Source: Eledone cirrhosa
Taxonomy: Eukaryota
NCBI GenBank assembly: GCA_964016885.1
Contig: OZ024746.1
Location: 65,410,001-65,474,000, forward strand
Length of the DNA stretch: 64,000 nt
Direction of reading: 5' to 3'
Shown here: piece by piece, positions 12,354-56,722 of the stretch
Numbering within the stretch: the first letter of the stretch is position 1
Layout of the letters: the number at the start of each line of letters is the position of its first letter
Program-made: the position numbers and the translations under genes
The notes under the pieces: model-generated
What the model was told of the DNA's origin: nothing
The model's database searches: none
What the model saw: only the letters and a program-made list of their open reading frames with translations

Positions 12354-12559
12354 AGAAGTAGTAACGCAACAGTTAGTTCACCATACCGAGACACAATTGT
12401 TCCACCTTATGCGGATCTTCGGCTCGGACTGATCCGCATAAGGTAAAATAATTGTTCTCGGTATAAAGAACTAACTACTGTGTTACCATTTCTACCAAAC
12501 TTGTTCCGTGGACTGAGTGCTCTATTACTACGGATATTACCTTCCAGTGTTCTACCGTT
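12354..12559. mobile_element. HHR family H fold-back mini-element (decayed)
   Basis: Imperfect inverted arms ~12354-12417 / 12431-12495 plus tail; homologous to 56471-56722. Minus-strand HHR remnant CCGAG-CCGAAGA-TCCGCATAAGGT-GGAA-CAATTG-TGT-CTCGG. Confidence 0.75.
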
Positions 12560-12578
12560 ATATATATAAATATATATA

Positions 12579-12936
12579 TGGAAAGTTATATTTAAATTGT
12601 TGGGTTACAACTAGTAAATATTTATAACTGATATAAAAGCACTCGACAAGTATTTGGAGTATATTTACAATATTAAATAAATGGAAACTATATTTATAAA
12701 ACCATATCTATTTCATTATATATATTTCAGGGATATCATATTAACAATATGCTATGCCTTCCTCAGACAAAATACAATATAAACAGTTTTATAGATAAAT
12801 AGATTCGACATACCGTAACAACATCGACTTGTATTTGAAAAAGTTGAATTGTTAATATGATATCCCTGAAATATATATAATGAAATAGATATGGTTTTAT
12901 AAATATAGTTTCCATTTATTTAATATTGTAAATATA
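12579..12936. mobile_element. HHR family A fold-back element
   Basis: Minus-sense long arm with tail (12579-12815) and a plus-sense short arm (12848-12936) that inverts 12660-12748. Confidence 0.8.
12709..12774 (-). ncRNA. Type I hammerhead ribozyme motif (family A)
   Basis: TATTTTGT-CTGAGGA-AGGCATAGCATATTGTTAATATGATATCCCT-GAAA-TATATA-TA-ATGAAATA. Confidence 0.7.
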
Positions 12937-13789
12937 TATATATATATATATATATATATATATATATATATATATATATATACACACACACACACATATA
13001 TATATATATATATATATATATATATATATATATATAAATATATCTTGTACTCGATTAAAGCAACTGACTCGGGCATGGCCTGGAAACAATGGAGATAGTT
13101 CCTCTACCTTTAGCTGATTTACACATTTTAAGACAATCTATGATATTCGGTGTCGAACTTGTCCATAAACTAATTTTCTGAAAGCAACGAACAGTCTTCC
13201 ATCATTATATATCCTAAACAAACATAGGTTCTTTGCAAGTTGACGGGACGGAAATATAAAACTATATATAGAAGTCATGCGCTATTTATGTATGTGAACA
13301 CAATGCAACACGACAATGCTTAAGAGAAGCTCACTGCATATAAAAGTGTATATATAAATAGAAATTCGCAAAATAGCGCGAAATAGCGCAAAATAGCGCA
13401 AAATAGCGCGAAATTTATTACACTTATTGACCAACCAATCAAATTACTTCTCTAAAAACCTGGCGTTTTGAGCCACTTTTTTCCATATAAAACAAGTAAC
13501 ATTCAAAGACCAACCAGATGTGAGAAAAACCACAAAGCCCCCATCTCAACTCTACTTTTGAAAAGCAGAAGAACTGCGAAACCGGTAAAAGAACCAAATA
13601 AATATATATTTTTTTTAAAAATAAGACTCCAGTTGCATTTTCGATTTCATCTTTTTTTCTTTATATTTTCACTCGTGTAGGACACCTCGGTTATTTTTCA
13701 TTTTGTAAAAGAAACCTCACTTTCTAATATATATATATATATATACATGTGTATATACATACATGTATATGTACATGTATGTATATATA

Positions 13790-13966
13790 CTTCCAACAGA
13801 AATGGTCGCATTCTTTAAGGGTATGTCAATATTTATTTATAAAACTGATCTATATTATATTTTATCTGATGAAAGCGCACCATAATTTGACTTGGTGTCC
13901 TTGAAATATGTATAATGAAATAAATATGGTTTTATAAATATAGTTTCCATTTGTTAATATATCGTA
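13790..13966 (+). mobile_element. HHR family A single arm in TA-rich sequence
   Basis: Homologous to 28714-28890. Confidence 0.8.
13858..13922 (+). ncRNA. Type I hammerhead ribozyme motif (family A)
   Basis: TATTTTAT-CTGATGA-AAGCGCACCA-TAATTTGACT-TGGTGTCCTT-GAAA-TATGTA-TA-ATGAAATA. Confidence 0.8.
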
Positions 13967-14025
13967 TATATATATATATAAATATATATTCATTTATATA
14001 TAAATATAAATATATATATATATAT

Positions 14026-14125
14026 AACTAAGGAGGTGTGGGGTAAGGAACCAGATGGACCATAACGCACCAGAGTACTCAATACTTAGGGTAGTAGAGT
14101 GGGTAATAGGAAAACATTTTCCTAT
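14026..14125 (-). mobile_element. Family G element, collapsed to tail plus a tiny hairpin (taggaaaacattttccta)
   Basis: Reverse complement of 16341-16431; flanked by (TA)n. Confidence 0.75.
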
Positions 14126-15049
14126 ATATATATATATATATATATATATATAAAAATATATGAGATATGTAGTTGTCCATATGTTTATATGCACGTGCAT
14201 GTTATATGGGTGCATAAGACTGCAAACATCATACATGTATGTTTGAACGTGGATATTTTGTATCTCAATATAGAAAACTGTACATCCGTATAATATAGAG
14301 CAAAGTATTTCACTTTTCGATCTTATGAAAGAATTAGGAATGTTCGTCAGAGATCATATTTATCAATATGAGTTGCCATGTGCAATATCACGCAACGTGA
14401 TTCATTGCTTATACTTTATAAACCACATAGAATGTCTAGTCCCATTTGCTATTCATCTAATTTCTTTACTACTTCAGTATATAGATGTAAATATCCGTAT
14501 ATCTTGGTAGGTGGGAAATAGGAAATATTAATATCCATACATTTCTCAAGGCTACTGAACATATCCAACTGTCTTAATCATAATATAGCTCTCCTCATTT
14601 GTGTTAGACTCTTGTAAATCGCCAATATAAATAAATCAGTCAGTTGCAATGTTGCGTATTCAATTCTTTTATCAACTCAACGTCCACATCGTTTACGTTT
14701 TTCTGATGCCGAATTAATATGACACAATATGACAAGGTAGTTCTTTGTATTAGAGGTACAATCTACCTGGCCGACATCCACATATTTTTCGTTTACATAA
14801 TCTCACCCAGAAGACATGGATCGATCCCGGTACCTTAGGATTGCAAAGAAAATTTATTTTTTAAATAGTCAGCCATAGTCAGCCATACCATCATCCAATG
14901 TGATAGCACAAAACCTATAATACAATATATCTAATATAACATTTTCTGCGTTTCTTATATGTCACATGCGTTATGTTTTACTGATATATATATATATATA
15001 TATATATATATATATATATATATATATATATATATATCTATCTATCTAT

Positions 15050-53953: not shown

Positions 53954-54381
53954 ACATATATATATATATATGGGGTTCGACTCCTTGAAGCGGTCGATGT
54001 CAACTTCGTTTTTTTCATCTGTAAGGTTCCTCACTCTATTTTATATGATATTTTGTAACATCTCCGTACGTGAACACATCAATGTTTATAAAAAACTTAT
54101 CCCCCAGCCCTTCGTAAAAGATGGACTACGTATACACGATGTTTGTTGACATTCAATAGCGTTGATTCAGCTATCTACCCTAAGACGGTATGAGTTGCCG
54201 CGGTCCTTTCTCTTAACGGTTTAAAGAGCATAACCGGTATCTGGGAGAAAGCGGCTGATGGAAAACTTTTTTTCGTCTTTTTAATGGTCTTCACGCTATC
54301 TTATAGCATCATTGCGCATGAGCACACTACTCATGTATTTATATATACATATTTTATTAACATTAAATTAGAAGCTTCAAA

Positions 54382-54572
54382 GGGGTGGTGGATGTGCAGA
54401 ATCGGTAGAGGGTCGGACACCATGCTTTGAAGCATAGAGTTACGGCCTTTGCCATTCTGAGTTCAAATCCCACCGAGGTTAACTTTGCCATTCATCCTTA
54501 CGGGATCGATAAAATATAGTACCAGTAATGCACTGGGTAATTGCTGGCCTTGTACTAAAAGTAGAGACAATT
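54382..54572 (+). mobile_element. Family 1 SINE with ~17-bp TSD
   Basis: aattagaagcttcaaag on both sides. Confidence 0.9.
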
Positions 54573-54971
54573 TAATTAGAAGCTTCAAAGAACGTACTTC
54601 TTTTCTCCATGAAAATAGTCCAACTCATCAGGCATACAGTAAAATTAGAGAGTAAAATGTCGAAAGCATAACGCAGGAACGGGGAAAGATAAATAGACTT
54701 TCGTCAAGAATGGAGGGAGAGGGAGGATGCCGGTAAGAAGAAAGTTAGTTAATTATATATGTGAGTGAAGATGTGTGTAATGATACAAATCCAATTAAAA
54801 GGACCCAGTGAATTTAAGATGAACTATAAATATCCCTTCACTTGTTATATATAAAGTAAATAACATTTGCTATAAAATATTTCCCACACACGTATACAGA
54901 CACACACAGATATACACATAAGCGCACAGTACACGCACACACGAATACAGTCACACACGCGCTTATATATA

Positions 54972-55062
54972 TAGGAAAAGAGTCAGGACCCCGATGGCTG
55001 AGCTCCGGCCGTTTCGACAGCTAGATCCGGTTCGATTCCTTAAGTAGTCGATGTCAACTTCA
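54972..55062 (-). mobile_element. Family G arm fragment
   Basis: Matches 53784-53840 and 53974-54007. Confidence 0.7.
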
Positions 55063-55147
55063 ACCATACATCCCATTTCATAACATACATCCCATTCCAG
55101 TAATATATCCCCATATACAATGATATATTAACAATATTACTGTTCTT

Positions 55148-55322
55148 TGGCAGTATCGGTAGAGGGTCGGACGCCATGCTTTCCAGCATAGTTACGTCCC
55201 TTTACGATCTGAGTTCAAATTCCGCCGAGGTTGACTTTGCCTTTCATCCTTACGGGGTCGATAAAATAAAGTACCAGTAATGCACTGGGTATTTGCTGGC
55301 CTTGTGCCTAAAGTAGAAACAA
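55148..55322 (+). mobile_element. Family 1 SINE with ~12-bp TSD
   Basis: attactgttctt on both sides. Confidence 0.9.
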
Positions 55323-56470
55323 TTACTGTTCTTAGGCAGTGCTTCCCATGTTTGCAGTAGTCTATGCTTGCTGAAGTTGTTTCAAACTTTAGTTATAATT
55401 TACTAATTTATTTAATATTGTTTCTTTTTTTTCCCTTGCGGTGGATGATAAACTAAAATTTGTAGTGATATCGGTAATTGTAATCCTTATGGTTTTATCT
55501 GGCGGTGTTGCTCGTTCTAGCAGTAATAGCTGTGAATCATTATTGATGCTGGCAATCATGGTGATCATTATTGGGAATGTTGGGTGTAAAAGCGCAAACC
55601 AAAAGAGTTGGTTTTATATTTCATTTTGCAGCAATTTGACCTTATAGTTACTAAGTCTGATATCACATTTAGATAAGATTTTTAGTTTATTGTATCACGC
55701 TGGTCGTTTCCAAAGCATTATCTTTTATTTTCATATTTCCGATTTTTTAAACAACTTTTGCCATTCGGCTCCATTCTTTATCGTACTTCCATATTTTCTA
55801 TTATACTATCTCGTCTCATCCAATTTTTAATTTGTTTCTACTTCTACTCTTCTATATCTATCACGAATACATGGTAATTAATTTCTCCATTTCTTTTATA
55901 CATATATACAAACATCGATGGGGAAAAAAACATATGTACAATCAAACAAAGAAAGAAATACTACATATTCTATACGTATAAACACAACTGGCGTACCAAG
56001 TCTGGCTTTATTTCTAATACCATATAATTGCTGGATATTAAGTTATTTCATAGCATTATTCATCGATCCATTGTCTTGCTGGGGGAACAAATGGAGCGTG
56101 ACGGGTGAACAAGTGTTATCTCTATATAGAATTCATTTAAACATTCAATCAAGATTTCTTAAGAGGCACATACAAGTTATGTTAGTATCTTAGTCTGTAA
56201 AAAATGATATGTTGCTTTGTATCTGCGTGATTGGAATTCAAGGAAATATCTCCTTTTGAACAGTAGATACTTCGATGTGCACCACAATGCATGTCCATTC
56301 CCTTTCTATGTGTTGCTAGTTACCAAGTAAGGCTTATATATATATATTCATATATATATGCATACACACACACACATACATATATATATAAGTAGGGCTT
56401 ATATATATATAAGTAAGGCTTATATATATATATATATATAAGTAGGGGTTATATACATATATATAGGGAG

Positions 56471-56722
56471 AGAAGAAGTGATACAATAGTTAGTTCACCA
56501 TACTGAGAACAAATTTCACCTTATGCGGGTCTTTAGCTCGGGCTGGTGATGGTTATACGGAACAGATACAGCTGTTCCGTATAACCATGATCAGTCCGAG
56601 CTGAAGATCCGCATAAGGTGAAATTTGTTCTTGGTATGGTCAACTAACTGTTGTGTTACTACTTCTACCAAACTCGTCCCATGGACTGAGTGCTCTACCA
56701 CTACGGATATTACCTTCCAGTG
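56471..56722. mobile_element. HHR family H fold-back mini-element
   Basis: Arms 56471-56565 / 56572-56666 plus a 55-bp tail; homologous to 12354-12559. Confidence 0.85.
56596..56634 (+). ncRNA. Minimal hammerhead motif (family H; mutated mirror at 56503-56541 on minus)
   Basis: CCGAG-CTGAAGA-TCC-GCATAA-GGT-GAAA-TTTG-TT-CTTGG. The family consensus stem III appears to be AACAATTGTT. Confidence 0.65.

Follow-up and report, generated by a model that had tools for sequence, protein, structure and literature searches.

A predicted bulged RNA hairpin, duplicated in complete units, lies next to most ends of Hydra-clade Penelope-like elements in Eledone cirrhosa

A 64,000-nt stretch of the Eledone cirrhosa genome (assembly GCA_964016885.1, contig OZ024746.1, positions 65,410,001 to 65,474,000; hereafter the window, to whose numbering the coordinates below refer) contains several repeat families with hammerhead ribozymes (HHRs), named A to H. 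An initial annotation had noted a short motif, YGAGT(A/G)CT-like, near the 3' junctions of six of them (A, D, E, G, H and one copy labelled Naiad), and had proposed it as a cis-element for recognition by the reverse transcriptase (RT) or endonuclease (EN) of Penelope-like elements (PLEs), or for 3'-end definition. Our analysis indicates that the motif belongs, as its 3' strand, to a predicted hairpin present in two copies, that most element ends lie 6-9 nt upstream of one or the other copy, and that the RT probably binds each copy and starts internally there, a reading based on sequence geometry and on the in vitro behavior of Poseidon_Ac. Enrichment and covariation, together with an exact mapping of the ends, support the core of the original proposal, which calls for four corrections: the unit is a structure, of which the linear 7-mer is one strand only; the fixed distance is a different one; the families are related; and the elements belong to Hydra rather than Naiad.

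Enrichment of the motif at (TA)n junctions

All nine GAGT-type matches named for the window are present. Their coordinates were exact on the plus strand, and those given on the minus strand proved to be the low ends only of 12638-12644, 43035-43041, and 45038-45044. Three further copies of family G had been overlooked (14080 minus, 33693 minus, and 41647 plus). The matches in the window end 32-61 nt from the microsatellite. The fixed spacing is that of 6-9 nt between an end and the next hairpin. The motif-to-junction distance of 35-65 nt follows from the spacing to a second hairpin that is absent from the insertion.

Two sets of 10-kb samples of the 3.0-Gb genome were used, 79 evenly spaced ones for discovery and 60 fresh ones as held-out data. 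The 79 samples held 856 (TA)n junctions, and 47 matches to GAGTRCT lay at a distance of 40-69 nt from them, where about 3 were expected (our own arithmetic from the sample-wide rate of 184 matches, 1.16e-4 per position). The motif is thus enriched by position over background. The antisense peak was smaller (17 matches) and its source is a near-palindromic word of family G, GAGTACTC. An unweighted ranking of 4-mer cores placed AT-rich cores on top, with GAGT in 11th place (13 clusters in, 6 out); the best ratio was that of GAGC (9 clusters in, 1 out). Variants with GAGC equal those with GAGT in frequency.

The motif as one strand of a bulged hairpin

In the tails that were read, ACTC stands upstream of each GAGT, separated from it by a short inner stem and a two-base bulge. 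Together these parts make up a predicted bulged RNA hairpin, RCTC-stem-loop-stem-T(T/C/A)-GAGY, of which the motif forms the 3' strand. It has a stem of 2-6 bp, a loop of 3 to about 100 nt, a bulge led by T and, often, RCT after the GAGY. The bulge measures 2 nt except in family H, where it is 1 nt. This layout fits 11 of the 12 window matches, including the copy labelled Naiad with its 61-nt loop, and the twelfth (41647) is cut off inside the hairpin.

Partner strands were scored in junction clusters having T[TCA]GAG[TC] at 30-80 nt. Upstream RCTC plus a stem was found in 22 of 71 discovery clusters and 11 of 37 held-out clusters, compared with 29/1176 (2.5%) and 12/823 (1.5%) away from junctions in the respective sets; the 3' strand was chosen first and its partner scored afterwards, and the clusters approximate families, some of them merging ends. 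A bulge of 2 nt alone works (26 + 14 clusters; lengths of 0, 1, 3, and 4 nt gave 0-8). The hairpin descriptor covered 108 copies in 30 families, and the bulge, whose letters it leaves unconstrained, read TT, TC, or TA in 101 of them. Of 46 clusters selected on sequence alone, 26 form the first three stem pairs, whereas 10,000 permutations gave 7.0 +/- 2.2 and never more than 16. For the outer pair, which this tally left unconstrained, A-T was seen in 12, G-C in 12, and another pair in 2; T-A outer pairs and a GTTC/GAAC core also occur. MAFFT failed to align the 5' strands of 23 hairpins because their loop lengths differ, and permutation tests were used instead of a covariance model. When the hairpins were folded in context, the core pair reached P>=0.95 in 7 of 12.

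The stem pairing contained 29 G-U against 12 A-C pairs, which favors the RNA-sense strand. This bears on the possibility that the element acts as DNA, with the EN recognizing the cDNA or an integration intermediate and resolving the ends there. Such a role would agree with the earlier explanation of the tail by EN-mediated resolution (PMC8557442) and with the dependence of the D. virilis EN on tail DNA, as cited in PMC11167929. It would also suit GAGYRCTC, which is palindromic in several families; the complete palindrome, a possible site of dimerization, is found in only a minority of the 30. Set against this are the sense-strand pairing, loops of 3 to about 100 nt, which are ill-suited to a double-stranded site, and the fact that the hairpin setting the longer end is missing from the inserted copy. 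We regard a DNA-level site as quite unlikely.

ACTC/GAGT was also considered as stem III of the hammerhead, which is true of many Hydra hammerheads and not of the families here, and we claim no link. An Rfam scan of the window gave no hammerhead among the matches listed (150 of 233); all were below gathering scores and consisted of microsatellite-driven microRNA models and one weak model of a viral untranslated region (UTR).

The families as Hydra-clade Penelope-like elements

The HHR families had been described as unrelated. Families G, A, D, H, and E and the copy labelled Naiad turned out to be the ends of distinct Hydra-clade PLEs. The proteins of G, A, D, H, and the last of these, referred to below as the young element, are 33-49% identical, and read-through copies of E, G, A, D, and H run into other Hydra open reading frames (ORFs). 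Naiad elements are defined by an N-terminal GIY-YIG EN before the RT and by a DKA motif, and Hydra elements by a C-terminal EN, RW(K/R), DKT, CxCx5C, CxxC, and CxH (PMC8557442). The ORF of the young element at 45524-47737 encodes, by translation and tblastn, an RT followed by a C-terminal GIY-YIG-like EN, with DKT, CxCx5C, CxxC, and CxH, and the Naiad label was replaced accordingly. Pfam returned no match for this ORF and the domain names rest on motifs. Either RWR or RWK, plus DKT, was found at loci L111, L300, L304, L309, and L313; the CxCx5C linker, CxxC, and CxH are all present in the first four, and the alignment of L313 covers the linker only. Hammerhead cores (CTGANGA...GAAA) precede the tails in A, D, E, H, and the young element, and the stretches read from family G held a partial core only. 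Of 30 copies, 26 end in (TA)n. The Hydra assignment is by diagnostic motifs, with protein relationships given as pairwise identities within this genome.

The HHR families of the window are 5'-truncated, mostly head-to-head ends of autonomous elements. The young family (window 44992-51203; L111-L139) gave 110 scored matches; their proteins are 98-100% identical, and in most of them the frame has 830 residues. Its hammerhead has a stem II of about 125 nt, and a microsatellite-like 3' region of 3 kb lies between its ORF and the pseudo-long terminal repeat (pLTR). Reading TGA as selenocysteine did not lengthen the ORF, which stops at TAA. Family G forms tandem units of about 3.5 kb. The L074 family, whose 615-nt tandem units carry both hairpins and are too short for the ORF, is a candidate non-autonomous Hydra derivative.

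Because the families are related Hydra elements, one might explain the motif by plain shared ancestry without constraint, or dismiss it as a chance word. Homology of the tails along their whole length would have favored the former, but in blastn comparisons between families the best match spanned 32 nt (E 8e-4) and all others had E>=0.1. Pairing is moreover kept with changed letters, in held-out data and in other phyla. As far as sequence can refute it, an explanation by chance or unconstrained ancestry is refuted, and we consider it extremely improbable.

Two hairpins and two ends

Complete units carry two hairpins upstream of the ORF. Head-to-head insertions have a short and a long arm, and the second hairpin closely follows the long end, on the 5' side of intact ORF starts. 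A second hairpin in this position was predicted for G, A, and D before the pattern searches were run. Among the matches listed, GCTC lay 6-9 nt after the long end in 77 of 100 (of 479) for family G and 93 of 100 (of 108) for family A, and a hand count gave about 54 of 96 for family D; reversed-pattern controls for the three families gave 0. A DNA search with the tail of family D had found nothing, and the pattern search then succeeded. For family H, a few copies with GCTC were seen among the 100 matches listed (of 2741), most of these matches being (CT)n flanks. Long ends of this family are often followed by (CT)n and not (TA)n genome-wide, as also at 56728 in the window. The second hairpin was complete in the copies fetched from four of four loci of family G and five of five of family A; for family D the descriptor recognized two of four and the other two had one mismatch each. 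In the fetched copies the Hydra ORF then follows. The second hairpin is also present in the young element and in six sampled families. In family E, five of the six read-through places found were unrelated flanks.

Ends were then related to the hairpins in nine families. Of 245 mapped ends, which include loci from family-specific searches, 170 are placed 6-9 nt to the 5' side of a hairpin, those of the short arm next to hairpin 1 and those of the long arm next to hairpin 2. In family G the short end is at -8 in 23/25 and the long end at -6 in 34/38; in the young element the corresponding positions are -7 (14/19) and -8 (30/31), and 26 of 30 short ends of family A fall at one place, 7 nt before hairpin 1. 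The modal end position is TAT or ATA, which overlaps the (TA)n target by 3 nt. One short and one long end were joined in 52 of the 55 head-to-head insertions of the unbiased samples and the window (27.5 expected, p 8e-13), and in 91 of 95 over all loci. The two hairpins are spaced by 67-138 nt in eight families. Since the ends lie 6-9 nt before hairpin 1 or 2 and short ends are paired with long ones, the one-sided tail is the spacing between the two hairpins. At one locus (L318; G000:C2:7215450-7216100), three family-D tails stand in tandem with a period of 104 nt, each long end being joined to a short-end site, which suggests template jumps between two start sites.

In G, A, D, the young element, and the L047 family, about 10-90 nt separate hairpin 2 from the ATG. 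This location, together with the A/T-rich 5' flanks, would be expected if the hairpins were kept for another job, namely to bind the protein of the element, be it for packaging or for feedback on translation close to the ATG, and if the ends were set only by TAT overlaps in AT-rich flanks. In that case it would be difficult to see why ends fall on one base per hairpin (30 of 31 at -8, as above) despite other TA words nearby, and why each insertion takes one end of each kind; we judge this explanation very unlikely.

A model for the choice of start sites

In the model that we propose, the EN would nick (TA)n on both strands, and each DNA 3' end would form about 3 nt of pairing with the RNA immediately 5' of a hairpin. 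Hairpin 1 would place one RT (or one protomer of a dimer) and hairpin 2 the other on the same read-through RNA, after which both would copy toward the RNA 5' end and join head to head. Two starts placed in this way would leave hairpin 1 within the long arm, stop the short arm before it, and confine hairpin 2 to tandem read-through copies. Of a cis-element for RT start sites, the fixed register to the ends has been observed, and binding and requirement by the RT are proposed; taken together such a role is likely. A more specific version, in which a telomerase-related RT uses the duplicated bulged hairpin as a ruler, with two active sites on one RNA and about 3 nt of priming on each nicked (TA)n strand, we hold to be slightly better than an even proposition.

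Precedent comes from in vitro work on Poseidon_Ac, where the RT began copying internally at two sites, which delimit the tail, and both strands were cut and extended (Frangieh et al. 2024, PMC11167929). A dimer was predicted for its RT and a protein-binding motif was hypothesized but left undefined (PMC11167929). The end geometry would be the same, however, if the hairpins directed RNA cleavage or 3'-end formation 6-9 nt upstream, through a host nuclease, an element protein, or self-cleavage, and two RNAs were then copied from their ends by ordinary target priming. RNA-seq read ends do coincide with RT start sites in Poseidon_Ac, but initiation was internal on longer RNAs in vitro (PMC11167929), and two RNA pools would need a further rule to yield one end of each kind in 52 of 55 insertions. 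With regard to self-cleavage, twister-sister-like ribozymes (LINE-1, OR4K15) resemble the hairpin in that a small conserved core is flanked by two stems within the UTR of a retroelement, and are characterized by a 5x6 internal loop and a CA cleavage site (PMC11620745). The one-sided 2-nt bulge is no such loop, and identity with these ribozymes was rejected. Processing of the RNA before copying therefore appears unlikely to us.

Several observations weigh against internal starts placed by hairpins. Of the 245 ends, 75 fall outside -9 to -6, among them the short end of D at -11, 11 ends at -10 in one family, those of E at -5, and 10 of family A at -27 that are possibly mis-anchored. The 3-nt TAT/ATA overlap is a raw modal count, and Poseidon starts in vitro without homology to the cut DNA (PMC11167929). 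The long-end patterns required CTC, so that read-through copies lacking it were not counted. By eye, hairpin 2 of family H is looser, with an A bulge and a usually mismatched outer pair; the second site of family E, 9 nt after the long end, consists only of GCAC-loop-GTGC without bulge or inner stem. In one Hydra family both hairpins have only 2-bp inner stems, and none of 19 relevant loci passes the 3-bp descriptor at the family's own hairpins. Folding in context gave a core-pair P<=0.24 in 5 of 12 hairpins (both of G, both of H, and hairpin 2 of the young element), the 5' strand of hairpin 1 in family G preferring the 3' strand of hairpin 2. Two of six published Hydra consensi showed no clear match by eye, and a third (Crog) a near match only. 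Finally, support for the hairpin-RT proposal in these elements is drawn from sequence.

Range of the hairpin

Under a strict descriptor, a hairpin stood within 16 nt in 13 of the 69 junction clusters that have read-through copies; for random sites the count was 25 of 4000. Families B and C and many SINE-like (short interspersed element) or unassigned clusters did not obey the end-hairpin rule. The motif had been reported as missing from B, C, and F. This was correct for B and C, which have no hairpin after their ends, and not for F, in which a read-through copy (L263) has the variant GTTC-TGCA-loop 6-TGCA-{TT}-GAAC 8 nt after the short end. The HHR-bearing repeat taken as F in the window (57063-57183, plus) has the short end only. 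For the DKG-type PLE of the window, no sense-strand hairpin was tied to the ORF start at 30 loci, a weak control because the 5' UTR of this element may extend past the sequence read. A hairpin-like match at 23647 in this element (2 of the 30 loci) is antisense, lies inside the ORF end, and is rich in wobble pairs, and was put down to chance.

Perfect matches were found by eye in three of the six published Hydra consensi, Hydra-2_Amil, Hydra-2_Ajap, and Hydra-1_Ajap, from a coral and a sea cucumber; in Hydra-1_Ajap the hairpin occurs twice in the 5' UTR, before the ATG. Six 9-mers of the 3' strand gave 7 matches in the whole supplement of PMC8557442, four near Hydra termini and three in Naiad or Chlamys sequences, in a word search from which line breaks can hide matches.

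Features and other repeats of the window

In the window, hairpin 1 of family H reads ACTT-GTTC-loop 3-GGAC-{T}-GAGT GCT at 12499-12521 (plus), with the long end at 12558, and ACTC-GTCC-loop 3-GGAC-{T}-GAGT GCT at 56672-56694 (plus; HHR core 56601), both with the 1-nt bulge. That of family A, at 12638-12660 (minus), is ACTC-CAA-loop 4-TTG-{TC}-GAGT GCT; the other copy (28894-28916, plus; HHR core 28790) follows a palindrome, 28529-28886, that stops 7 nt before it. Family G contributes ACTC-TACT-loop 6-AGTA-{TT}-GAGT ACT at 16358-16384 (plus), within an insertion at 16227-16429 that has a short left and a long right end, and a further copy at 53879-53905 (plus). Its overlooked copies comprise hairpins at 14074-14100 (minus) and 33687-33713 (minus, 5' strand placed by eye) and a stub ending inside hairpin 1 (41636-41685, plus), which has the 3' strand only. 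Family E has ACTC-TGC-loop 3-GTA-{TT}-GAGT ACC at 43035-43056 (minus; HHR core 43122). Family D is represented by ACTC-CGGAGT-loop 18-ACTTCG-{TC}-GAGT GCT at 53640-53682 (plus; HHR core 53535) and by a short-end arm at 52272-52606.

Hairpin 1 of the young element (ACTC-TGTAT-61 nt-ATACA-{TT}-GAGT TCT, 45038-45121, minus) lies in an inverted copy with the long end (44992-45525). The 5'-truncated ORF at 45524-47737 (plus) corresponds to residues 77-813 of the full ORF in L111, and the direct pLTR at 50807-51203 (plus; HHR core about 51015) has the short end, 7 nt before hairpin 1. A degenerate ORF of another Hydra family (60027-61949, plus) is 37% identical to the young element; the 5' UTR of other copies of this family has both hairpins.

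Family B (26657-27136; 41819-42357) consists of a hammerhead unit, about 400-480 nt long and directly repeated at one end, that sits where a DKG-type PLE ORF ends, and family C (42476-42956) is a hammerhead palindrome with a 57-nt AC-rich tail whose ends can pair; neither has the bulged hairpin. A degenerate PLE at 23754-26660, with the DKG motif, an RVT_1 match, and an inverted 3' copy, ends in (CA)n rather than (TA)n. A near-perfect palindrome of 532 bp (19382-19913) between (TA)n runs has a short one-sided extension and no hammerhead core by pattern. A dispersed repeat of about 190 nt, probably a SINE, has more than 10 copies (3787-3943, 16637-16821, 18310-18732, 34369-34505, 36672-37203, 39172-39766, and 54384-55325). 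The 256-residue frame at 15053-15820, with a weak DUF6451 match (E 5e-05, below the cut-off), is probably a remnant of a long interspersed element (LINE).

Relation to known systems and significance

The hairpin is a new cis-element of a known retroelement clade. The Hydra clade as published (Craig et al. 2021, PMC8557442) shares with the elements described here a hammerhead in the pLTR, (TA)n targets, an inverted truncated copy, and a one-sided tail. That tail was given as 30-40 bp and ascribed to EN-mediated resolution, whereas here it measures 60-140, and a conserved tail structure is not described in the passages of that paper used here. Poseidon_Ac starts in a single AC-rich stem-loop inside the ORF, without homology to the target (PMC11167929), and no RCTC/GAGY hairpin was seen by eye in its sequence in Fig. 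S1B of the same paper. We found no description of the hairpin in the parts considered of PMC8557442, PMC11167929, PMC4209133, PMC3846280, PMC7229834, and PMC11620745, nor did literature searches aimed at it show one.

In contrast to Poseidon_Ac, the elements here have a pair of separate 5'-UTR hairpins, and their ends modally overlap the target by 3 nt. A comparable arrangement exists in telomerase, the sister RT family of PLE RTs, where the template/alignment region and boundary elements of telomerase RNA combine a structured RNA, at a set distance from where copying begins internally, with a short overlap between primer and template repeat. Unlike in telomerase RNA, there is no reiterative synthesis of repeats here, and the hairpin is duplicated and lies 3' of the start. 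Small structured RNAs also recruit their own RT in the 3' stem-loops of stringent LINEs (L2, R2) and in the bulged epsilon of hepadnaviruses. The LINE stem-loops are single and inside the copied part, with priming at the RNA 3' end, and epsilon is protein-primed from the bulge.

The choice of start sites by PLE RTs and the origin of the tail have been explained, on the one hand, by EN resolution (PMC8557442) and, on the other hand, by two internal starts with an undefined RNA signal (PMC11167929). A duplicated hairpin whose conservation reaches coral and sea cucumber, and which keeps a fixed distance to both ends, makes the origin of the Penelope tail directly testable by mutagenesis. It also provides a rule for annotating the boundaries of Hydra elements and for linking short hammerhead palindromes to their parent elements. 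If the duplicated hairpin does act as a ruler, this would explain the one-sided tail and head-to-head structure for the whole clade, and would supply a portable RNA tag, about 25 nt long, for target-primed reverse transcription from internal sites.

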